Origin: Tequatrovirus LF73P3
Length of the DNA: 64,000 nucleotides
Sequence record: OZ035756.1
Strand: one strand, 5' to 3'
Shown one piece after another: positions 2,235-47,565 of the stretch. The position numbers and the translations under genes are program-made. How positions within the stretch are numbered: the stretch's first letter is position 1; each line of letters starts with the position of its first letter. The notes beneath the pieces were generated by a model. The model saw nothing but the letters and a program-made list of their open reading frames with translations. It was not told where the DNA came from and did not search any database.

Positions 2235-4931
2235 TCAGCCAAACAGGAAGTCTAACGAAGCTTTTTCCTCATAGTCCATACCTGCCGATTCACACATGCC
2301 CGCAAGCGGTTTAACAAACGATTTTTGGAACAAAGTTGAGTAGTCAATCCAAGACAGTACGTCAGAACGAATTTCTTTTGGAAGTTCTGTGCCTGATGGC
2401 CAAGCAATGCACTTGTCACCAAATGGATTTCCTTCACGTAATGGAAGAACCATTACCTTATTTCCATCCAAAATTGGAGCTACACCTAAACCGCTAACAG
2501 CTCGACGATAAGTTAGCACACCACGAATATGGAACGGACATTTAAATCCTGGCCAACCTTTATCATCATATTTCGCTATATCGTTCGCAGTTTTTACTTC
2601 AGCAATAACTTTATAGTCAAGTTGACGATATTCTTTCTCAAAGTTCTTGTAGTATTCTTGGACAGACTCTTCACCTTCCTGAAGAATACGACGAATACTT
2701 TCTTCGAGAGCTTCTTGTACTGCTTTTGGTGTTGAGCTCTGCTGAGTTTCCATACCCATAATTTTTAGATGCGGTTCGGCAAATCGCTTATCTTCCATAT
2801 CATAAACGTTCAGAGCATAACGTTTTTTCGCTTTCCAAAATCCACCAACACCCTTTGAACCAAGCGGAGGGCAAGAAATAGCTTCACGGTCCATATGCAT
2901 CAGATGCTCGCGGTTATTCATATAATCACATAACTCACGATATGCAACATCAATCATAGGTTCCATCTTTTTCTTACCGAACTGATTCATGAATTCAACT
3001 AAATCATTTTGTTCTTTAAAGCGGTCAAGACCTACTTTTTCAATTACTTTATCTACACAAACATATACCGAATCAGTATCACCTGCTGCGATGAAATCTT
3101 CACCATTAGTTCCACATACTTTATTCAGATATTCATTAATTTTGCGAGCAATCCATTGAATACCGACTTGACCGAAAATTGTGATAGCAGTAGCATTTCG
3201 CAAATCATAGTAGCGGAAATGAATATTACCAAGAGCACCATAAAGACTGTTAATAAGAATTTTACGGTTCAGCTGATTTGTGTTAGCAAGTGTAGCAGCT
3301 TTTTCGCATTCTTCGATCAGACTATTAAGTACAGATTCAGTGTAATTCGATAATTCGTTTAAGAAATCATCACTGAACTTAACATATCGTTCAACTTCTG
3401 GTTTAGTTGAACAAGACCCTGCACCTTTCATAATAATCTTTTTAATAGCTTCGGCATTCATTTCTTCCGCGAACATTTTCTTTTTCCAATCTTTACGCTG
3501 GAAAAATACTTTAGCGATTTCCTTTGGAATGATACCTTCTTGGTGCTTATCATACATCCATCCATTCGGAGAGCAAGAATATTCATCACTTGGCTTAGGA
3601 GCTGTTCCTGCGATATATTCATGAATTGGATGAACTTTAAACTGCCCACGAATAGTCTCAGGACTAATGTTAACCTGACGAATAATGCTAGGATACAGAG
3701 ACGTCAAGTCAAAACTCATAATGTATCGACGAGCAATCGGTTTAGGTTCAAACACAAATGCACCTGGAAAACTCTGTTTAACGTGCGAACCTTGTTGAGG
3801 AATAACCTTATGTTCACCTTTCAGTGAGTTAAAAATAATAGCATCCCAAGTTTTAATAGGACTCATTACACCAGAAAAAGGCATTTTAGCGTAATAAGAC
3901 ATACTTAAAACTAGATCGATAAACCCACGAATTTTATCAATTGCTTGAACTGATTCTACGTCAATGATGTTATAACTAATGTATCGTTGATGATTAGTCT
4001 CACGAAGTTTATTAATAGGACCATCGTACGGCAATTTACCTTTTTTGGTTTCATGTTGAGCAACTGATTCCAAAGAGAACGATGGCAAATTAGTAAATGC
4101 GAATTTCTTGTACAAATCTAAATAATCAAGAATAGATACGCCATCAATAGAATAAATTTCTTTACTACCGTACATATTTTGAATTAGTTTAGATTTTACT
4201 CGACCGATTGGAGAGAAGCGTTTCATACTACGTTCACCGAGAACCATTTTAACACGATTCATGATATACGGAACGTCAAATCCCTCAATATTCCAACCGG
4301 TAAAAATAGCAGGTCGTTTCTGTTCCCAGAGATTAATATATTCCATGAGCATATCACGCTCATTATCAAATGGCATATAAATTACTCGGTCAAGAATTTC
4401 TTGAGGAACTTCATCACCACCTTCACAGTCAAGCTTAGCAGCTAACTTTGCGTCCCATTTTGATACTGAACCGTACATTGAATTCAACAAATCAAAGACG
4501 TAAAAACGATCGTCAATTGAATCATAATGAGTGATAGCATCAATTTCATATTCTGCTTTCATTGGGTCAGGAAATTTATCACCAGTAACCTCAATGTCAC
4601 AGTTAGCTACACGAACAAATTTTCGGTCATAAACAATTTCTGAACCATATGTATCACTGATATAAGCGAGTTTAAAATCGTTCATACCGAGAGCTTCGAG
4701 ACCAATGTCTTCCATTCGTTTCATCCAGTCTCGTGCATCTTTCATTGATGGAAATTTTTGAGGAGCACAATTTTTACCATAAATGTCTTTGTATTTTGAC
4801 TCTTCCTTACAATGCCTAAACATAGTCGGAAGATATTCTACTTCACGGGTACGTTCCTTTCCGTTTTCATCAATATAACGCTCAACAATATTATTTCCGA
4901 CTGTTTCGATAGAGATATAAAATTCTTTCAT
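2235..4931 (-). CDS. 43: DNA polymerase gp43 (family B)
   Basis: 898-aa ORF beginning MKEFYISIETVGNNIVERYIDENGKERTREVEYLPTMF, essentially the T4 gp43 sequence as I recall it; exonuclease and polymerase motifs present (FDIE, YGDTDS). Confidence 0.98.
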   Translation of the reverse strand: MKEFYISIETVGNNIVERYIDENGKERTREVEYLPTMFRHCKEESKYKDIYGKNCAPQKFPSMKDARDWMKRMEDIGLEALGMNDFKLAYISDTYGSEIVYDRKFVRVANCDIEVTGDKFPDPMKAEYEIDAITHYDSIDDRFYVFDLLNSMYGSVSKWDAKLAAKLDCEGGDEVPQEILDRVIYMPFDNERDMLMEYINLWEQKRPAIFTGWNIEGFDVPYIMNRVKMVLGERSMKRFSPIGRVKSKLIQNMYGSKEIYSIDGVSILDYLDLYKKFAFTNLPSFSLESVAQHETKKGKLPYDGPINKLRETNHQRYISYNIIDVESVQAIDKIRGFIDLVLSMSYYAKMPFSGVMSPIKTWDAIIFNSLKGEHKVIPQQGSHVKQSFPGAFVFEPKPIARRYIMSFDLTSLYPSIIRQVNISPETIRGQFKVHPIHEYIAGTAPKPSDEYSCSPNGWMYDKHQEGIIPKEIAKVFFQRKDWKKKMFAEEMNAEAIKKIIMKGAGSCSTKPEVERYVKFSDDFLNELSNYTESVLNSLIEECEKAATLANTNQLNRKILINSLYGALGNIHFRYYDLRNATAITIFGQVGIQWIARKINEYLNKVCGTNGEDFIAAGDTDSVYVCVDKVIEKVGLDRFKEQNDLVEFMNQFGKKKMEPMIDVAYRELCDYMNNREHLMHMDREAISCPPLGSKGVGGFWKAKKRYALNVYDMEDKRFAEPHLKIMGMETQQSSTPKAVQEALEESIRRILQEGEESVQEYYKNFEKEYRQLDYKVIAEVKTANDIAKYDDKGWPGFKCPFHIRGVLTYRRAVSGLGVAPILDGNKVMVLPLREGNPFGDKCIAWPSGTELPKEIRSDVLSWIDYSTLFQKSFVKPLAGMCESAGMDYEEKASLDFLFG

Positions 4932-15925: not shown

Positions 15926-16107
15926 TACCCATGGAGTTTAATTTCCTTAGCAACTGAACTAAATACAGCACGGTCACAAATCATCTGTTTATGTAACTTG
16001 AGTATAAGATAATAAACTTCAAAACCGTTTACATAAGTAACACGAACAACATTACCATTAATAAAATAATATTGTCCCTTTTTAATTTCTTTATCAACCA
16101 CAACCAT
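15925..16107 (-). CDS. Hypothetical protein (60 aa)
   Basis: ORF directly downstream of early promoter at ~16140. Confidence 0.35.
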   Translation of the reverse strand: MVVVDKEIKKGQYYFINGNVVRVTYVNGFEVYYLILKLHKQMICDRAVFSSVAKEIKLHG

Positions 16108-16136
16108 ATCAAATCCTCAAAGGCAATTCATGTGTT

Positions 16137-16170
16137 AATAATACCACAGTTTGAACTTCTTGTAAACAAC
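16137..16170 (-). promoter_or_regulatory. T4-type early promoter
   Basis: Minus strand GTTTAC-18 nt-TATTAT. Confidence 0.55.
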
Positions 16171-16246
16171 TTTGTGAAAATTATTTTAGGGAATGATAAG
16201 AAGGGAACGATAGCTTAGAATGGTAATATACAGAATGTGAGAAAGA

Positions 16247-16266
16247 AAGGCCCAGAGGGCCCGTCT
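16247..16266 (-). terminator. GC hairpin terminator after nrdH-like gene
   Basis: Minus strand GGGCCCUCUGGGCC followed by UUUCUUUC. Confidence 0.5.
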
Positions 16267-16580
16267 TAGTCTTCTATGATATCTCTATCATATCCAAGTG
16301 AAATGAGAGTTTCTTTGAAGTGTTTAATGTTCTTTTGTCTAGAATCATTAATGAAAATGACTGGATAACGAATGTTAAGAGATGTAAATCCAGCGCGTTT
16401 AGCAAGAGATACAATCAGTGGACGATCATACTCGATCTTACCATTATTTGTAAGAACTTTATAGAAAGTAAAAGGAGCATTGAGCTCCTTTAGAAGTTTT
16501 GTAACTGATTGACATCCAGGACAACGACCAACTTCATCTGGAATTCCATAGACTTCAATCTTATTCTTTAAGTTCGAGTT
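16266..16580 (-). CDS. nrdH: Glutaredoxin-like NrdH-type redoxin (CPGC active site)
   Basis: KIEVYGIPDEVGRCPGCQ... thioredoxin-fold CxxC; start uncertain (track ORF extends to 16718 in overlap with upstream ORF). Confidence 0.55.
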   Translation of the reverse strand, partial: NSNLKNKIEVYGIPDEVGRCPGCQSVTKLLKELNAPFTFYKVLTNNGKIEYDRPLIVSLAKRAGFTSLNIRYPVIFINDSRQKNIKHFKETLISLGYDRDIIED

Positions 16581-16872
16581 TTGTTCCACGAGAAATAATT
16601 CCTTGATAAGCCCAATATGGCGGGTTAACAGAATCATCGCCAGAATTTTCTTCAGGAAAATAAACCTGGATAACAAATCCAGATTCATCAAAGGTAAAAT
16701 AAACCGTAGGTAATTCACCTAACAATTCAGCACGATTATTAATTTCTTCGAGTTCTCGTTCACGTCCGGCCCAAAAACTAGGATTTAGACTACATTCATA
16801 GAAATAATAGTCATTACCGAACATATCAAAACCATTCCAACTCTCTACCACATACCGCTCAAAACTAATCAT
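16561..16872 (-). CDS. Hypothetical protein (103 aa)
   Basis: ORF from the six-frame track; I could not reproduce a clean 103-codon frame when counting bases, so boundaries may be off by one. Confidence 0.35.
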   Translation of the reverse strand: MISFERYVVESWNGFDMFGNDYYFYECSLNPSFWAGRERELEEINNRAELLGELPTVYFTFDESGFVIQVYFPEENSGDDSVNPPYWAYQGIISRGTKLELKE

Positions 16873-16874
16873 AA

Positions 16875-17090
16875 TTAAGCCTTTTTATCAAGAACAGCAT
16901 TCAGTTTGTTAGTAATTTTATCCAGACGCTCATTGAACTCGCTAGAAGACAGTCCTTTTTCTGGAGAAATCAAACTAATCACGAAAAATATAGCAATAAA
17001 AGGAATAAGGAAAATAGCTCCAACTGCCATAAACAGAAAGAATGTTACAGTTGTAAGAAAATCAGCTAAACCTTTGCGAAATTTATACAT
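16875..17090 (-). CDS. Small membrane protein (71 aa)
   Basis: Single long hydrophobic helix (VTFFLFMAVGAIFLIPFIAIFFVISLI). Confidence 0.4.
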   Translation of the reverse strand: MYKFRKGLADFLTTVTFFLFMAVGAIFLIPFIAIFFVISLISPEKGLSSSEFNERLDKITNKLNAVLDKKA

Positions 17091-17205
17091 ATTTTACCCT
17101 TAATTGATTAACCAAGCATTGATAAGCACTAAACTATATTGTGAATAAAATTCTGGACCAAAATGAAAAATCATATCATTTATAGTGTCCATGATATAAT
17201 TCAAT

Positions 17206-17676
17206 TTAATCATGTTTCCACACCCCATCGGTATTTGACCAAAGTCGCTGATTATCTGATCCTCGCCACAGCTTTTTGGTCGGAAGATTTTTCTCATACT
17301 TCCCATCAATAATAACATCAACATATTTAAGCATTTCTAGTTGTTTAATATCTTCAAACTTATATCCTGTCCACACCCAAATGCTTTTATTCGGATAAAG
17401 ATTTTTTACTGTTTGAACAATGCAATGAACAACATCTCGGTTATCAGGATAAAGAGGGTCTCCTCCAGTTATAGTTAATCCTTCTATATAATCATTATTC
17501 AAACATTTAATTAATTGTTCCAGTGTTTCACCAGTGAATGGAACGCCATTTCTAGCATTCCACGTTGATTTATTATAACACCCTTCGCATTTATGCAAAC
17601 AACCTGTAACGAAAAGAACGACCCTGCATCCAGGGCCATTCACAAAATCGCAGGGATAAAATCTATCGTAATTCAT
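17206..17676 (-). CDS. nrdG: Anaerobic ribonucleotide reductase activating protein NrdG (radical SAM)
   Basis: 156 aa with Cys cluster CLHKCEGCYN typical of NrdG activases; overlaps nrdD start. Confidence 0.88.
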   Translation of the reverse strand: MNYDRFYPCDFVNGPGCRVVLFVTGCLHKCEGCYNKSTWNARNGVPFTGETLEQLIKCLNNDYIEGLTITGGDPLYPDNRDVVHCIVQTVKNLYPNKSIWVWTGYKFEDIKQLEMLKYVDVIIDGKYEKNLPTKKLWRGSDNQRLWSNTDGVWKHD

Positions 17677-19490
17677 TGGTGTTTAACCCTATGCATGATT
17701 TCTTTATTTTTGCCGAGATTAAATCCGCGCTCGTTCGGATTTCCCAAATAGCCGCATGTTCTTCTTATTGTGTTCATCTTTTTAGGATCAGTTTCTCCAC
17801 AAATAGAACAAACAAATCCGTTTTCAGTAGGAGTCATTTCATGGGTACTTCCGCATGTAAAACATTTATCTACTGGCATGTTAACACCAAAATAATCTAA
17901 ATGTTGTGCGGCATAATCCCATACAGCCTCAAGACCTTTTAGGTTATTTTTCATATCAGGAAGTTCAACATAAGAAATGTGACCGCCTGTTGCAATGAAA
18001 TGATATGGTGCTTCGCGAGAAATCTTTTCAAACGGAGTAATATTTTCTTCTACTGAAACGTGGAAACTGTTAGTGTACCAGCCTTTATCAGTAACATCCT
18101 TTACACTTCCATATTTTTCGGTATCAAGTTTACAGAAGCGATAGCACAGGTTTTCAGCAGGTGTAGAATACAAACTAAAAGCAAAACCAGTTCTTTCAGT
18201 CCACTGCTTAAGACGAGCATTCATTTTAGTTAAAATTTCCTGTCCAATATCACGACCGACAAGAATATTCAATTCATGAATACCAATGTATCCTAAAGAC
18301 ACCGAACTTCTACCGTTTTTAAATAACTCAATTATGTCGTCATCAGGTTTAAGACGAACCCCGAATGCACCTTCTTGGTAAAGAATAGGAGCTACAGTTG
18401 CTTTAACTCCTTTTAAGGAACTAATTCTACACATCAAAGCTTCAAAACACAGATCCATTCGTTCATTGAACAATTCGGCAAATTTCTGTTCATTGAACTG
18501 TGTTCCAATATAAGAATCTAATGCAATGCGAGGAAGATTCAGTGTTACAACACCAAGATTATTACGTCCATCAAGAATTTCATTACCAGTCGAATCTTTC
18601 CATACACTCAAGAAACTACGACAACCCATTGGAGAAACAGGAATAGATGAACCGGTGATAGCTTTATTGTTCTTAGCCGAAATGATGTCAGGATACATTC
18701 TTTTGCTTGCACACTCTAGAGCAAGCTGCTTAATATCATAGTTTGGATCGTCTTTATAAAGATTAACACCTTCTTCAACGAACATAACAAGCTTAGGGAA
18801 AATAGGAGTTATCCCATCGCGACCAAGGCCTTTAATACGATTTTTCAGAATTGCTTTCTGAATCATTCGTTCAGTCCAGTCAGTTCCCGTACCAAACGTA
18901 ATTGTTACAAAAGGCGTTTGTCCGTTTGAACTAAAGAGAGTATTTACTTCATATTCATAAGCTTGGAATGCATCGTATACGTCTTTTTCTGTTTTAGATT
19001 GGGCATAATTCAATGCATCAGCGATTTGCCATTTTTCTGCATCCTCAATATGTTTTGCATAGGTGCGTTTAACATAAGGAGAAAGTACTTTATCTACATT
19101 CGCAAAAGTCGTTCCGCCATATTGATGGGAAGCAACCTGTGCAGTAATTTGTGCCATAATTGCAGTGGCAACGCCGATTGATTTAGGAGTTTCAATCTGT
19201 GCATTACCTAATTTAAATCCATTCTCAAGCATCCCCTTTAAATCGACTAAACAGCAATTAGTAAATGGAAGAGCAGGAGAATAATCAATATCATGCACGT
19301 GAATGATTCCGCTTTCATGCGCATTCATAATAAAAGACGGGACCATATTTTTGGCAATGTGTTTAGACACAATACCAGCCATAAGGTCCCGTTGAGTTGG
19401 AAAAACACGAGAATCTTTATTAGCATTCTCGTTTAAAAGGTCTTTATTAGTTTTATGAATCAATCCTTCAATTTCTTTTTCAATTGTCAT
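17673..19490 (-). CDS. nrdD: Anaerobic ribonucleoside-triphosphate reductase NrdD (glycyl radical enzyme), uninterrupted
   Basis: 605-aa continuous ORF; C-terminal zinc ribbon (CFTCGSTHEM...CSICGETD) and glycyl radical motif RTCGYLGNP; no intron visible. Confidence 0.93.
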   Translation of the reverse strand: MTIEKEIEGLIHKTNKDLLNENANKDSRVFPTQRDLMAGIVSKHIAKNMVPSFIMNAHESGIIHVHDIDYSPALPFTNCCLVDLKGMLENGFKLGNAQIETPKSIGVATAIMAQITAQVASHQYGGTTFANVDKVLSPYVKRTYAKHIEDAEKWQIADALNYAQSKTEKDVYDAFQAYEYEVNTLFSSNGQTPFVTITFGTGTDWTERMIQKAILKNRIKGLGRDGITPIFPKLVMFVEEGVNLYKDDPNYDIKQLALECASKRMYPDIISAKNNKAITGSSIPVSPMGCRSFLSVWKDSTGNEILDGRNNLGVVTLNLPRIALDSYIGTQFNEQKFAELFNERMDLCFEALMCRISSLKGVKATVAPILYQEGAFGVRLKPDDDIIELFKNGRSSVSLGYIGIHELNILVGRDIGQEILTKMNARLKQWTERTGFAFSLYSTPAENLCYRFCKLDTEKYGSVKDVTDKGWYTNSFHVSVEENITPFEKISREAPYHFIATGGHISYVELPDMKNNLKGLEAVWDYAAQHLDYFGVNMPVDKCFTCGSTHEMTPTENGFVCSICGETDPKKMNTIRRTCGYLGNPNERGFNLGKNKEIMHRVKHQ

Positions 19491-19960
19491 TTTAAACTCT
19501 TTCTAAGCTGCTTCTTAAATGAAGCTATTAATTGTGTTTTGGTGTCAGATTCATTATATTCAAATCCTCTTTGAAGCATCTCAGCCATCATTTCCTCTTT
19601 TCCTAAACGAGAAAATTCCTTTGATTTATCTCCAACGAAGTTAGGGTGAATATTATTTTGGGTGTAATCGGATTTTAAATAAGTAAGTAAATTTTCTAAC
19701 CATTCAAGATAATCAACACCTTGTCCCTTTAAGCCAGAACGATTAAATTTGTGCTTCATTTGACCTTCCGCAGCATTGCAAAGATTACAGAGCAATCCAC
19801 GTACCTTTCCTGCTTTTGGTCCATTTAATTCGTGGTCATGGTCGAGGTGATTAGCTTGAACATCAGGATTTAGTTCTCGTTGGCAAATTAAGCATTTACC
19901 ATTTTGCGCATTATAAAATTTTTGTTTTTCTTCTTTGTATAATTTGCCAGTCAATAACAT
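19487..19960 (-). CDS. 49: Endonuclease VII (Holliday junction resolvase) gp49
   Basis: 157 aa; sequence matches T4 gp49 as I recall it (zinc-binding CLICQRE...HLDHDHELNG...CNLCN). Confidence 0.93.
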   Translation of the reverse strand: MLLTGKLYKEEKQKFYNAQNGKCLICQRELNPDVQANHLDHDHELNGPKAGKVRGLLCNLCNAAEGQMKHKFNRSGLKGQGVDYLEWLENLLTYLKSDYTQNNIHPNFVGDKSKEFSRLGKEEMMAEMLQRGFEYNESDTKTQLIASFKKQLRKSLK

Positions 19961-20178
19961 AATAAAACCCTTACCTTAAATAGATAAGGGTATTTATTAT
20001 TTTCAAGTATTGTAAAACATTCGATGCAATCGCTTATATTGCCGAATCATCTTTTTAGTAGGTCGAACATAAGTTCCTACACAAGTGGTCATATTAGAGT
20101 CGGTAGGACTTCCTTTAATAAAAAGTTTCCAAACCTTACCACCATTTAACTTTTCAGTATAAATTAATTCGGTTTTCA

Positions 20179-20643
20179 TTAAAACGCTCGGTCAGAAAAA
20201 GAATTTTGAGTTTCAAGCCATTCAATATATTCTGCCGCAGCTTGCATTAAATTTCCTTCATAACCATCGTTATTTTCTTGTGCAGCTAATTTAGCCAATG
20301 CGTATGAAATACGTTCACCCTGAAAAGCGGCTTTAGGTTTATGAATAGCTTGATCAACTCGTTCTACAACTTCTTCAATTTCGCCATTTTCTACTGATTC
20401 AGTATTCCACAAGCACCAATACGTAATTGGCTTATCATAGATGTTAATAACCTTTCCGTCAGAAAGTTCAATTTCAATAATTCCAGTATCAGGTTCTATG
20501 TCATCTTCACATTCTTTTGCAAGTTCACGAACTTTAAATACAGTACCTGCACTAAGTTCCGGCCAGTAATTACACAGCCCTTTATCAGCACGATTAATTC
20601 TAAACCACTTATCTACTGCAATCATGTCCCATCTCCATATCAA
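20179..20643 (-). CDS. Hypothetical protein (154 aa; in the position of T4 pin, the Lon protease inhibitor)
   Basis: Synteny only (between 49 and nrdC); sequence not independently recognised. Confidence 0.4.
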   Translation of the reverse strand: MIWRWDMIAVDKWFRINRADKGLCNYWPELSAGTVFKVRELAKECEDDIEPDTGIIEIELSDGKVINIYDKPITYWCLWNTESVENGEIEEVVERVDQAIHKPKAAFQGERISYALAKLAAQENNDGYEGNLMQAAAEYIEWLETQNSFSDRAF

Positions 20644-20748
20644 TTATGTCATTTATCGTTGGTTCATTATATACTGTTTCTTCATCAGTGTAAACCGGTT
20701 CTTCCGGCTCTGGCTCTACAGTTTCCCATCTAGCCGCCCACCAAGGTT

Positions 20749-21096
20749 TTATAGCGTAATCCATTCTCGTACTGTCTGAGTTACTACGCGTTCACGGGGC
20801 TCGACTAGTTCAACAGTTGGAACTGCATAATACCAGTCAGAATGGTAAGAACCTGAGCGAGTTTCATTTACAGACACATGAACGTTATGTTTTGGACTAA
20901 AATAAACACACTGACGATATTGGCATTTGCCATCTTGTACCCAATCTTCTATTTCGACAGGTTTAAGATAATCCGAAAAATCGAAATCATAATTTTCTGA
21001 AAATCCATCATGGTCTTCGATGATTTCGCTCAGAACTGCATCAACATCGTAAATCATATTTACCCCAGTTTGACCATACAATCGCCATATTTCCAT
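20749..21096 (-). CDS. Hypothetical protein (115 aa)
   Basis: ORF in 49-nrdC interval. Confidence 0.4.
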   Translation of the reverse strand: MEIWRLYGQTGVNMIYDVDAVLSEIIEDHDGFSENYDFDFSDYLKPVEIEDWVQDGKCQYRQCVYFSPKHNVHVSVNETRSGSYHSDWYYAVPTVELVEPRERVVTQTVREWITL

Positions 21097-27474: not shown

Positions 27475-27738
27475 TTATTTTAATGTTTGCCAAATTTTTA
27501 CTGCTTCGCGACGAGATACTTCTACAGCTCCAAGTTCTACGGCTTTTTGGCGTCGGCGAGCATGTAAGTCATAATGTTTAATGCGTTTATCTTGAAACCA
27601 AGAACGTTTCATTCCTATTGCTTCTGCCATTTTATGAAGCTCTTCAATATCTCCATCAGTGAACATATGACAATTTTTAGTTGGATGACCGCGAAGTTTC
27701 CATCCATGATTCATTAAAACATCTACGTAAACTGTCAT
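27475..27738 (-). CDS. Small conserved phage protein (87 aa), DUF4031-like by recollection
   Basis: MTVYVDVLMNHGW...HMFTD...ELH.MA.AIG pattern; family assignment from memory only. Confidence 0.35.
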   Translation of the reverse strand: MTVYVDVLMNHGWKLRGHPTKNCHMFTDGDIEELHKMAEAIGMKRSWFQDKRIKHYDLHARRRQKAVELGAVEVSRREAVKIWQTLK

Positions 27739-27929
27739 TGATTCTGCTCCAAATATGTTTCTATAATTTTCTGAGCGAGATAAACTGCGTTATCTTCAGT
27801 TGCATCTTCTAAGAAATTTTCAAAATAAGCTGAAATTTCTTCTGTGTCAATCAACTTTTTTACTTCAATTAACGTAGTTTTCATTTTATTCCCCCAAATC
27901 CGTATCAGTTGATAGTTGTATAGTACCAC
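27735..27929 (-). CDS. Hypothetical acidic protein (64 aa)
   Basis: ORF immediately downstream of early promoter at ~27930. Confidence 0.4.
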   Translation of the reverse strand: MVLYNYQLIRIWGNKMKTTLIEVKKLIDTEEISAYFENFLEDATEDNAVYLAQKIIETYLEQNQ

Positions 27930-27951
27930 AGTATGCTTTGGTTGTAAACCG
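27919..27951 (-). promoter_or_regulatory. T4-type early promoter
   Basis: Minus strand GTTTAC-18 nt-TACTAT. Confidence 0.6.
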
Positions 27952-27970
27952 TTTTGTGAAAAAAATTTTG

Positions 27971-27996
27971 AAATAAAAAAGGGGACCTTAGAGGTC
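27971..27996 (-). terminator. Intrinsic terminator
   Basis: Minus strand GGGGACC-UCUAA-GGUCCCC followed by UUUUUU. Confidence 0.7.
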
Positions 27997-28009
27997 CCCT
28001 TGCGTTAGT

Positions 28010-28495
28010 TTATACCATTTCTATTATGTGCATATTCTTTTTGCTGTCAAAATATATGCTTTTAACTGTTAACTCAGAATTAATTGGCAGTAAAAACTCT
28101 CTTTCATAATCTACCATACAAAGATTATCATAAAGTTTGTTAAGCTTATCATCATCAGTTTGACCAGATTCTTCAATTGCGATTAAATTTTCTAAAATGT
28201 CAATCATGGCAGTCGAATAGTCAAAAACGTTTGCATTTTTTAACACTACTAAAACATTAGTCATATAGCGTTCTGCAGCAAACGTTTCAGCTATATGAGA
28301 CTCACTGCTAAAGGAAGTTATTCTTTTAAATTTGATTCTCCTATTAACTTCAAACTTATAAGATAGCACTTCCTCTATTGTAAGTCCTCTAAAAAGTATG
28401 TCTTTAATCTCAAGTTTGTCTTTAATGTAATCATTAACACGCTTATGATTAAAATCATTAATTTTGTTGCCAAGGCATTGCATTAAAATATGCAT
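28010..28495 (-). CDS. Candidate mini ADP-ribosyltransferase (R-S-E type), 161 aa
   Basis: Motif triad in ART-like spacing: LFRG (R36), YSTA (S94-T95), EREFLLP (E131/E133); single-gene unit between promoter and terminator. Confidence 0.4.
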   Translation of the reverse strand: MHILMQCLGNKINDFNHKRVNDYIKDKLEIKDILFRGLTIEEVLSYKFEVNRRIKFKRITSFSSESHIAETFAAERYMTNVLVVLKNANVFDYSTAMIDILENLIAIEESGQTDDDKLNKLYDNLCMVDYEREFLLPINSELTVKSIYFDSKKNMHIIEMV

Positions 28496-29635: not shown

Positions 29636-30117
29636 TCAGCCTTATATTCAATAACAGGACATACTTTAGCTTTACGCGCTTTTAAAAATTCGACGATAAT
29701 AGATTTCTTGGGTTGAATAGGCTCAAGTCCATTTTTGATTCGTTCTTCGTTTTGTACAATGAGCTCAATTTCTTTATTGAGCTTTCGGTCGTTATATTTG
29801 TCTAACAACCAGGAAGGACCAATTACCGCCCCGACAGCAATAAGAACCATGACCGATAATGCTAAAATGCCTATACCAATTGAAGCTGGAATTAATGTCC
29901 ATAGACTACTAAAGACAAAGAATTTAATTAAAATTTCTTGGCCAATTATTGCAGCACCTGTTAAAGTTGCAAATCCAACAATTGAAACCGCTAATACCGG
30001 GAGAAACGTTTTCCAAAAATAAGCACATAACGTTTTTGGACGATTCCATGTGCTGTTAAATGCCGAGTAAATTTTAAAGTGCCAAGAGTTTTCATTAATA
30101 ATCATAATTATAATCAT
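29632..30117 (-). CDS. Membrane protein (161 aa), translationally coupled to the nucleotidyltransferase
   Basis: Several hydrophobic helices (FLPVLAVSIVGFATLTGAAIIG; IGILALSVMVLIAVGAVIG); stop overlaps NTase start. Confidence 0.5.
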   Translation of the reverse strand: MIIIMIINENSWHFKIYSAFNSTWNRPKTLCAYFWKTFLPVLAVSIVGFATLTGAAIIGQEILIKFFVFSSLWTLIPASIGIGILALSVMVLIAVGAVIGPSWLLDKYNDRKLNKEIELIVQNEERIKNGLEPIQPKKSIIVEFLKARKAKVCPVIEYKAE

Positions 30118-30635
30118 CCTTTCATTGAAGGTGTAACAGTTGTTAAATACTTAATCATAGCTTCAGCTTCTGATTTTGATAATGAAATTTCTCCATTGTT
30201 TTGACGAATAGAAATAAAATCCGGATGACGGTCACCACCAGCTTTTAAAACACACATATAAGTATCAGTTTCATCTTCAATATCTGAAATGATTGAAGCA
30301 GTTCCACATGAATGTGGTTTTTGATAAATCAATACAGCTTTTCTTCCACCGTTTGACTGCTCATAAACTTTTAACACATCAAACAAATCACTTCTTTTAT
30401 CAATAGCTAAGATGTTGTTTTCATCTTCAATGTTAAATCCTTCGGATACTTCATAAAGTGTCACCCATAAATCACCAATATCAATAACAGCGTTCACTTT
30501 TCCATGACTTTCAAGAGCATTACAAATTTTCTTAATTTCATCATAACTCATTTTAATAATATCATCTCCTTGAATAAAGAAGATGTCATTTTTAAATTCA
30601 ACGCGAATTAAACCACTTTCACTTGAAATAAACAT
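30114..30635 (-). CDS. Hypothetical protein (173 aa), weak paralog of upstream gene
   Basis: C-terminus SKSEAEAMIKYLTTVTPSM resembles TKDEAIALKTYLDSVIPTM of the 30642..31199 product. Confidence 0.45.
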   Translation of the reverse strand: MFISSESGLIRVEFKNDIFFIQGDDIIKMSYDEIKKICNALESHGKVNAVIDIGDLWVTLYEVSEGFNIEDENNILAIDKRSDLFDVLKVYEQSNGGRKAVLIYQKPHSCGTASIISDIEDETDTYMCVLKAGGDRHPDFISIRQNNGEISLSKSEAEAMIKYLTTVTPSMKG

Positions 30636-30641
30636 ATTTCC

Positions 30642-31199
30642 TCACTTTGAAATCATAGTTGGAATGACAGAATCAAGATAAGTCTTTAGCGCAATAGCTT
30701 CGTCTTTGGTAAATGTGACAATATATGAACGAAAATCATCAATTTGACGAATAGTTAAGACATCTCCATCTTCATAACATTTTGATACATTTAAAACAGT
30801 TTCATCATTTTGATTGCAAGCGTTAGTAATAATAGCATTGCAATTTTTGAGCCATTTTAAACTATGTTTTCTTTCATTAGAATAATAAAAATATTTAATC
30901 TTATCTATAAAACTATCCCAATGGATAACTGATAAACACATTGACTCACTTTTAATATTAAATCCTGGGCATGAAGAATAAAAATGAATTTTGTGCTCAT
31001 CATTGATGCTTACTATTTTATCAGTATAAGGATATTCTATTTGGATTAAATGAATGATTTCACTAGGCGTAAAATATAGCATATCGTCTTCTTGCGTCAA
31101 ACGATACATGTTATTTACTTTTTCTATAGCCAATTCACCAAAAAGCGGACTAACTTCTAATACTAATCGTTTCATATTGATTCTCTTCGACTCACTCAC
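30642..31199 (-). CDS. Hypothetical protein (185 aa); apparent GTG start
   Basis: First gene of a four-gene early operon; AGGAG RBS upstream of GTG. Confidence 0.45.
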   Translation of the reverse strand: MSESKRINMKRLVLEVSPLFGELAIEKVNNMYRLTQEDDMLYFTPSEIIHLIQIEYPYTDKIVSINDEHKIHFYSSCPGFNIKSESMCLSVIHWDSFIDKIKYFYYSNERKHSLKWLKNCNAIITNACNQNDETVLNVSKCYEDGDVLTIRQIDDFRSYIVTFTKDEAIALKTYLDSVIPTMISK

Positions 31200-46109: not shown

Positions 46110-46186
46110 TGGTCGAGGCAGTAGGGATCGAACCTACGACCTAGGACTTAGAAGGTCCTTGCTCTTCCTTCTGAGCTATGCCTCGT
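46110..46186 (-). tRNA. tRNA-Arg (anticodon UCU)
   Basis: Manual fold: acceptor CGAGGCA/UGCCUCG, anticodon loop CUUCUAA, T-arm GGUUCGAUCC, encoded CCA. Confidence 0.8.
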
Positions 46187-46188
46187 AG

Positions 46189-46854
46189 TTAAAATTTCAT
46201 TTTTCGACCTTTAAACCATCCTTCTGGAATTGGGTCAGTTTTCTTAATACGTTTAGAAACTTTTTCATCTAATGAATGAATCCACATCATACCAAATTGG
46301 GAATTCTTTTCACCTTTTTGGTGATTATTTTTAGCGTGAATTTCTTTCATTTTATTAATAGTTTCAAGAGTATGATGCTTATTTAAAAATCGGCTATTAT
46401 TTAAAAATTTTTCTTTGTATTCAGGAGTTGACCACAAACGTTTAAATACATTTGAACCATTTTTACGATATTTTTCTTGAAGTAAAATATCATTTTTAAA
46501 ACGTGACTTAAACGATTTAGCTCCTTTTAAACTAGCGTCTTTCTTCTGATTTAGCATCTCAGGAATATTTATATGATCCCATCCACCTTCACCGCCAAGT
46601 TTTAAATTATACACATCAGGTCTATTTAAAAACTCTTCTGTGACAATATTTTTCTCGGCTTCAAGCATAGATTCTTTATCGTCAAAATATTCTAATATTT
46701 CTTTAGAAAAATTTTCTATACCATACCTGTCTTGGGCTCTTTTTAATAATTTACCAGAACCCATATATCCATCATCTAAATTTTCGGTAGAATGCACACC
46801 AATATAAATTTTATTATTAATTTTATTTGTTATTTTATAAAGATAAAAATGCAT
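46189..46854 (-). CDS. segB: GIY-YIG homing endonuclease SegB
   Basis: GIY-YIG module (FYLYKITN...KIYIGVH); lies between tRNA-Arg and the main tRNA cluster as T4 segB does; start set at MHFYLYK to avoid overlapping the adjacent tRNA. Confidence 0.75.
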   Translation of the reverse strand: MHFYLYKITNKINNKIYIGVHSTENLDDGYMGSGKLLKRAQDRYGIENFSKEILEYFDDKESMLEAEKNIVTEEFLNRPDVYNLKLGGEGGWDHINIPEMLNQKKDASLKGAKSFKSRFKNDILLQEKYRKNGSNVFKRLWSTPEYKEKFLNNSRFLNKHHTLETINKMKEIHAKNNHQKGEKNSQFGMMWIHSLDEKVSKRIKKTDPIPEGWFKGRKMKF

Positions 46855-46900
46855 ATCAGTCCCTAATAAAGAACTGAGCGTCTCACGACGAGTCATAAAT

Positions 46901-46987
46901 TGGTGGGGAGTGATGGAGTCGAACCACCCGAGTCGCAATGACAATGGATTTACAGTCCACACCGCTACCTCTACGGGATAACTCCCC
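46901..46987 (-). tRNA. Type II tRNA-like gene, anticodon apparently GUA (Tyr)
   Basis: Manual fold: perfect acceptor GGGGAGU/ACUCCCC, anticodon loop CUGUAAA, long variable arm resembling E. coli tRNA-Tyr, T-arm GGUUCGACUCC, encoded CCA; D-arm pairing ambiguous. Confidence 0.55.
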
Positions 46988-46996
46988 TAATTAATT

Positions 46997-47073
46997 TGGT
47001 GACCCAGACCAGATTTGAACTGGTAACCTTTCCCTTATGAGGGGACTGCTGCTAACCATTGAGCTACAGGGCC
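46997..47073 (-). tRNA. tRNA-Ile (anticodon CAU)
   Basis: Anticodon loop CUCAUAA, T-arm ACCAGUUCAAAUCUGGU, encoded CCA; D-stem weak. Confidence 0.7.
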
Positions 47074-47074
47074 T

Positions 47075-47150
47075 TGGTGCTGATTGACGGAATCGAACCG
47101 CCGACATCCTCATTACAAGTGAGGCGCTCTACCTACTGAGCTAAATCAGC
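47075..47150 (-). tRNA. tRNA-Thr (anticodon UGU)
   Basis: Acceptor GCUGAUU/AAUCAGC, anticodon loop CUUGUAA, T-arm GGUUCGAUUCC, CCA. Confidence 0.85.
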
Positions 47151-47152
47151 AA

Positions 47153-47239
47153 CGGAGGCGATAGGATTTGAACCTATGAGTCGCCGGAGCGACTGCCGGT
47201 TTTCAAGACCGGTGCATTAAACCACTCTGCCACGCCTCC
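47153..47239 (-). tRNA. tRNA-Ser (anticodon UGA), CCA not encoded
   Basis: Begins GGAGGCGUGGCAGAG..., anticodon loop CUUGAAA, long variable arm; matches T4 tRNA-Ser as I recall it. Confidence 0.85.
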
Positions 47240-47241
47240 AG

Positions 47242-47315
47242 TCTCCGCGGCAGGATTTGAACCTGCGACATTCTGCTCCCAAAGCAGACACTCTACCAAA
47301 CTGAGCTACACGGAG
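47242..47315 (-). tRNA. tRNA-Pro (anticodon UGG), CCA not encoded
   Basis: Anticodon stem-loop UCUGC-UUUGGGA-GCAGA; separated by ~2 nt from tRNA-Ser (dimeric precursor arrangement). Confidence 0.8.
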
Positions 47316-47325
47316 TAAATTAAAT

Positions 47326-47399
<74 letters not shown>

Positions 47400-47404
47400 A
47401 AATT

Positions 47405-47491
47405 TGGTGCGAGAAGTGGGACTCGAACCCACAAGGAAATCATTCCGCAGCATTTTAAGTGCTGTGTCTTTACCAATTTGACCATTCTCGC
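47405..47491 (-). tRNA. tRNA-Leu (anticodon UAA)
   Basis: GCGAGAAUGGUCAAAUUGGUAAAG..., anticodon loop ACUUAAAAU region, long variable arm, CCA. Confidence 0.85.
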
Positions 47492-47492
47492 G

Positions 47493-47565
47493 CTGGGAAT
47501 AAAGGACTCGAACCTTTGCATCTAGCAGTCAAAGTGCTATGCCTTACCAACTTGGCTAATTCCCA
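47493..47565 (-). tRNA. tRNA-Gln (anticodon UUG), CCA apparently not encoded
   Basis: Acceptor UGGGAAU/AUUCCCA, anticodon stem-loop UAGCA-CUUUGAC-UGCUA; abuts tRNA-Leu. Confidence 0.8.

Follow-up and report, generated by a model that had tools for sequence, protein, structure and literature searches.

An uninterrupted, T2-type nrdD gene without a group I intron in Tequatrovirus LF73P3

The stretch of DNA analysed here (the window) comprises 64,000 nucleotides of Tequatrovirus LF73P3 (OZ035756.1). Overall it is of Tequatrovirus type, with gene 42/43 towards one end and the baseplate wedge genes towards the other. The best matches to the region as a whole are about 96–97% identical (KNP1, 97.4%; P922, 96.5%; sb3, approximately 97%), and no record in the collection matches a 25-kb window query as a whole at 99% identity or more.

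The nrdD gene (17673..19490, minus strand) encodes the large subunit of the class III (anaerobic) ribonucleoside-triphosphate reductase. In the ORF list of the window, the gene is an uninterrupted frame of 605 codons, which begins with ATG, contains a single terminal stop and yields a protein of 605 aa. The Pfam family NRDD (PF13597) matches residues 21–604 in one stretch that covers profile positions 1–562 of 562 (571 bits, E=3e-171). A Gly_radical domain (PF01228, 90.5 bits) was found at residues 481–586, and the glycyl-radical motif, RRTCGYLG, includes Gly580. The zinc cysteines of a Cys4 site are located at positions 543/546/561/564, with CxxC pairs at 543 and 561. The full-length family profile, the glycyl-radical domain with the Cys4 zinc site and the adjacent radical-SAM activase gene nrdG place the protein in the NrdD class. 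Judged from its sequence, the product is a complete class III ribonucleotide reductase. Its transcript would be translated directly, and the glycyl-radical enzyme so made is predicted to be functional.

Two genes on the same strand flank nrdD. Downstream, nrdG (17206..17676, minus strand) encodes the radical-SAM activase of NrdD, which is recognised in Pfam by Fer4_12 (165 bits) and Radical_SAM matches. Upstream, gene 49 (19487..19960, minus strand) encodes endonuclease VII, as identified with Pfam. Both junctions are 4-nt ATGA overlaps, of the nrdG ATG with the nrdD stop and of the gene 49 stop with the nrdD start. Because nrdG starts within the stop codon of nrdD, there is no room between them for mobC or a segH-type gene, endonuclease genes that occupy this junction in T4 and other phages, and mobC, the gene of the T4 junction, is absent from the window. 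The overlap of the gene 49 stop with the nrdD start likewise leaves the 49/nrdD junction without an inserted endonuclease gene. The two ATGA overlaps probably couple the translation of nrdD to that of gene 49 on its upstream side and of the activase gene on its downstream side.

Some neighbouring regions differ from T4 in gene content. Between the nrdH-like and 55.8-like genes there is an additional ORF of 103 aa (16561-16872, minus strand), which has no Pfam match, is absent from T4 and is annotated in phage IME537. In place of the 115-bp spacer of T4, the interval between the nrdC.10-like and nrdC.11-like genes contains two ORFs at 27475-28495 (minus strand): one of 87 aa with a DUF4031 domain (77 bits) and one of 161 aa without a Pfam match. 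Tandem paralogous genes at 30114-31199 (minus strand; 173 and 185 aa), both of which match the N-/C-terminal domains of T4 y05I-like putative transcription factors, occupy the place of mobD and its neighbours in T4.

The nrdD of T4 (NC_000866 43535-46385), annotated as a join of two pieces that enclose I-TevII, was used as the reference for the intron. Both exons align with the window gene without an indel, and the sole gap is a clean 1033 columns after coding nt 538. The empty insertion site is thus located between 18953 and 18952 (minus strand), at coding nt 538/539, after the first base of codon Tyr180. Between T4 and the window, 97 of 1818 exon nt (94.7% identity) and five amino acids differ. 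The sequence features of an intron-containing gene of the T4 sunY type, namely an insertion of about 1 kb after nt 538 and a group I catalytic core, were not found in the window nrdD. Neither was a GIY-YIG endonuclease ORF (I-TevII) found inside the gene, where the NrdD frame is continuous and no additional ORF occurs. The earlier note had described nrdD as uninterrupted, in a single 605-codon frame, and the phage as an intron-minus relative of T4. The ORF, the full-profile Pfam match and the gap-free exon alignment confirm the first statement, and the gap, which falls exactly at the T4 exon junction, confirms the second. The alignment to the T4 exon junctions and insertion site that the note had proposed as a check revealed gap-free exons and no cryptic intron.

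Searches with Rfam gave a concordant result. No group I intron was detected in the whole window at the gathering score, nine tRNAs being the sole Rfam matches, and 16000-21000 gave no Rfam match at E≤1, the group I intron model RF00028 included. As a positive control, the T4 intron scores 105 bits with RF00028, which together with the T4 annotation supports the statement in the earlier note that T4 nrdD carries a group I intron encoding I-TevII. RF00028 misses the divergent nrdD intron of the IME537 type even at E≤1. The Rfam negative is therefore supporting evidence only, and the continuous frame with the gap-free exon alignment is the decisive evidence against an intron. A rival reading is that the continuous frame conceals an intein, or an intron in cryptic or degenerate form. 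Nothing was found in its favour, the only caveat being that the Rfam negative by itself is weak. The window NrdD has the length of the spliced T4 product (605 aa) and is identical to it at 600 of 605 residues with no indel, and the NRDD match spans the entire profile in one stretch. A concealed element of this kind can be regarded as practically excluded. Selfish endonuclease genes are known to enter this locus at three points, the 49/nrdD junction, the intron site at codon 180 and the nrdD/nrdG junction, and all three are empty in this phage.

Elsewhere in the window, a single homing endonuclease gene was identified. The segB-like gene (46189..46854, minus strand) encodes a GIY-YIG protein of 221 aa, counted from an MHFYLYKIT start, that scores 25.7 bits against the Pfam GIY-YIG cut-off of 22.6, and it lies between tRNA-Arg and tRNA-Tyr. 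No other homing endonuclease gene was found with Pfam among 30 window ORFs, in a scan of ORFs of at least 70 aa. In addition, the positions that mobB (alpha-gt/alpha-gt.2), mobC, mobD (after nrdC.11), segC (5.1/5.3) and I-TevII hold in T4 (Table 1 of PMC2988022) are unoccupied in the window. For ORFs of this size, the vacant positions and the 30-ORF scan agree with the earlier note, in which segB is the only homing endonuclease seen in the window. The tRNA cluster (46110-47565, minus strand) contains nine genes, and its tRNA-Tyr(gta) gene directly adjoins the segB-like gene. T4 is not known to have a tRNA-Tyr. SegB and tRNA-Tyr of T6 were linked in 2026 to escape from Septu defence (PMC13096335).

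The counterpart of the 30-bp I-TevII homing site is located at 18933..18962 (minus strand), which we take to be the extent of the recognition site. The spliced T4 junction reads GCTTATGAGT before and ATGAAGTGAACACGTTATTC after the insertion point, compared with GCTTATGAAT and ATGAAGTAAATACTCTCTTT in the window. Of these 30 positions, 23 match and seven differ, all synonymously, with the differences concentrated at +8 to +20. I-TevII presumably cleaves 13-15 nt 3´ of the insertion site (+13/+15), inside the divergent stretch. The window haplotype is of the T2 type: the contiguous junction is identical to that of T2 in comparisons over 66 nt and 71 nt, and the gene order is 49-nrdD-nrdG without mobC. 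In total, 142 records, T2 among them, share all 71 nt around the empty site, and of the alleles in 20 intron-less IMG/VR contigs the window junction is the most frequent. Beside the site, seven silent differences between the window and T4 fall within 22 nt, versus a mean of 1.6 per 30 nt. An exceptional clustering at the insertion site was considered and rejected, since another stretch of nrdD, at approximately nt 1012, has eight differences in 30 nt.

Both intron lineages have G at -2, which pairs in the predicted P1 helix (UAUGAGU/GCUCAUG) with a C belonging to the internal guide sequence; empty alleles mostly have A at this position. Codon 179 is GAA in 22 of 22 empty alleles in one comparison. 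A strict link between GAA at codon 179 and the absence of the intron was nevertheless rejected on account of Salmonella phage SG1 (MF001354 156010-156680), in which an intron-less nrdD combines GAG with a T4-type site, the junction reading GAGT before and ATGAAGTGAACACGTTATTC after the insertion point. With its T4-type site and no intron, SG1 shows that the haplotype of the site does not strictly go with the presence of an intron. It is also the best match to an uninterrupted T4 spliced-junction haplotype, for which no record exceeds 93% identity. The SG1 junction is either a cognate empty I-TevII target or the product of precise intron loss.

The intron-less state is common. Of 1320 phage records matched by a 400-nt query with the insertion site at its centre, 1064 gave a contiguous match across the site and about 71 a match split into two places. 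About nine in ten T4-like phages (approximately 90%), T2 included, have no nrdD intron. At least 80% of the T4 nrdD intron is covered in 69 records. Twenty-five of these match it at 99% identity or more and are mostly re-sequenced T4, together with Yersinia phage fPS-2; the other approximately 44 match it at about 66% and are of the IME537/F2/SP1 type. That the three T4 introns occur patchily in T-even phages has been known since the late 1980s (reviewed in PMC2988022), and it was this variable occurrence that first suggested their mobility. T4 itself has been called an oddity for its load of 15 homing endonucleases (PMC2988022). An intron-less T2-type nrdD in a phage poor in homing endonucleases is therefore an ordinary and already known state, and nothing new. 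The intron-minus reading in the earlier note was right yet unremarkable, and two points can be added to it: intron-minus is the majority state, and mobC beside nrdD is missing as well.

The history of the allele is a separate matter, which we infer from the flanks of the empty site and from intron-containing relatives. Yersinia phage fPS-2 (LR215722 42858-47090) carries a T4-type intron with only three differences in 1033 nt, in exons that differ from those of T4 at 168 of 1818 nt. These exons are identical to T4 over nt 493-572, an interval that covers all seven of the site differences between the window and T4. The pattern looks like that left by homing with co-conversion of a short tract of roughly 80 nt. 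A T4-type flank that travels with the intron by co-conversion would account for the position of the silent differences just 3´ of the insertion site. Homing endonuclease genes are also annotated in fPS-2 on either side of nrdD, at the 49/nrdD junction and downstream of the gene, which brings the insertion hot spots of the locus to three.

The window carries the common haplotype of intron-less genomes and not the T4-type flank, which points to a lineage that was most likely never invaded, or that regained the empty allele by recombination, rather than to the precise loss of a T4-type intron. A continuous gene would also result if a T4-type or IME537-type intron had been lost precisely, for instance through recombination with cDNA of the spliced mRNA. 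Intron loss belongs to the life cycle that has been proposed for homing endonuclease genes (PMC2988022), and SG1 provides an existing intron-less gene with T4-type flanks. Such a loss, however, is expected to leave GAG at codon 179 together with the 3´ flank of the donor, and the flanks in the window match neither intron-plus haplotype and are identical to the commonest empty-site haplotype. Precise loss is accordingly a very improbable origin for this allele, although the SG1 case leaves some probability to precise loss with a subsequent recombination. We are nearly certain that the gene is an ordinary intron-less Tequatrovirus nrdD allele of the same type as T2, whose lineage would either have escaped invasion or have regained the empty allele. 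The contrary points concern this history only; none contradicts the main statement that nrdD is intron-less.

The divergence of the empty site also raises the question of whether I-TevII could act on it, and here we infer from sequence comparison. The presumed cleavage positions and the -2 base, which P1 pairing requires, are among the seven silent changes, and these might block I-TevII cleavage, or efficient splicing once the intron had inserted, and make the site a homing-resistant allele. Their number and their concentration at +8 to +20 fit this proposal, as does the rarity of a contiguous T4 spliced-junction haplotype (none above 93% identity), and A at -2 would give an A-C mismatch beside the splice-site U-G pair in P1. 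On the other hand, co-conversion replaces the flanks anyway, as in fPS-2, and hence the -2 base would be no barrier, and the density of differences within nrdD is statistically unexceptional. GIY-YIG endonucleases in general tolerate many substitutions in their sites, as known from work on I-TevI, which also counts against resistance. The proposal is consequently judged unlikely, although it is less so than precise loss. It is doubtful, in other words, that the T2-type empty site, which this phage has in common with at least 142 sequenced relatives, is refractory to I-TevII. If it were, target-site immunity, and not lack of opportunity, would confine the T4-type nrdD intron to about 25 records, mostly T4. 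The preferred reading remains that of an ordinary empty allele, and the phage is a potential recipient in homing crosses. For annotation, nrdD in this phage is a single intact gene and no join is needed.

Among the closest known systems is the nrdD of T2 (AP018813 40833-42650; PV958097). It is likewise an uninterrupted gene of 1818 nt in the order 49-nrdD-nrdG with 4-nt overlaps and no mobC, and it has the same 71 nt around the insertion site; overall, the window represents a different phage. T4 nrdD (sunY) has the same neighbours, 49 and nrdG. Unlike the window, T4 contains a 1033-nt group I intron after nt 538, which encodes the GIY-YIG endonuclease I-TevII, and has an HNH gene, mobC, at its nrdD/nrdG junction. 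The fPS-2 locus differs from the window by the endonuclease gene inserted at its 49/nrdD junction. The exons of the IME537/F2/SP1 type are 96.6% identical to those of the window (61 of 1818 nt differ), but the intron that separates them, at the position it has in T4, belongs to a second and divergent lineage. This lineage was observed in about 44 records, including Escherichia phage IME537 (MT179807, about 2549-3593 of the extracted locus), F2, SP1, PNJ-6 and vB_EcoM_FN, and their GenBank records annotate nrdD as two fragments. Compared with T4, the IME537-type intron is approximately 66% identical at the nucleotide level, its endonuclease is 56% identical to I-TevII, and of 55 predicted core pairs, 13 differ by compensatory changes between the two lineages. 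This second lineage, which Rfam misses, and the short co-conversion tract of fPS-2 are modestly useful for annotation pipelines.
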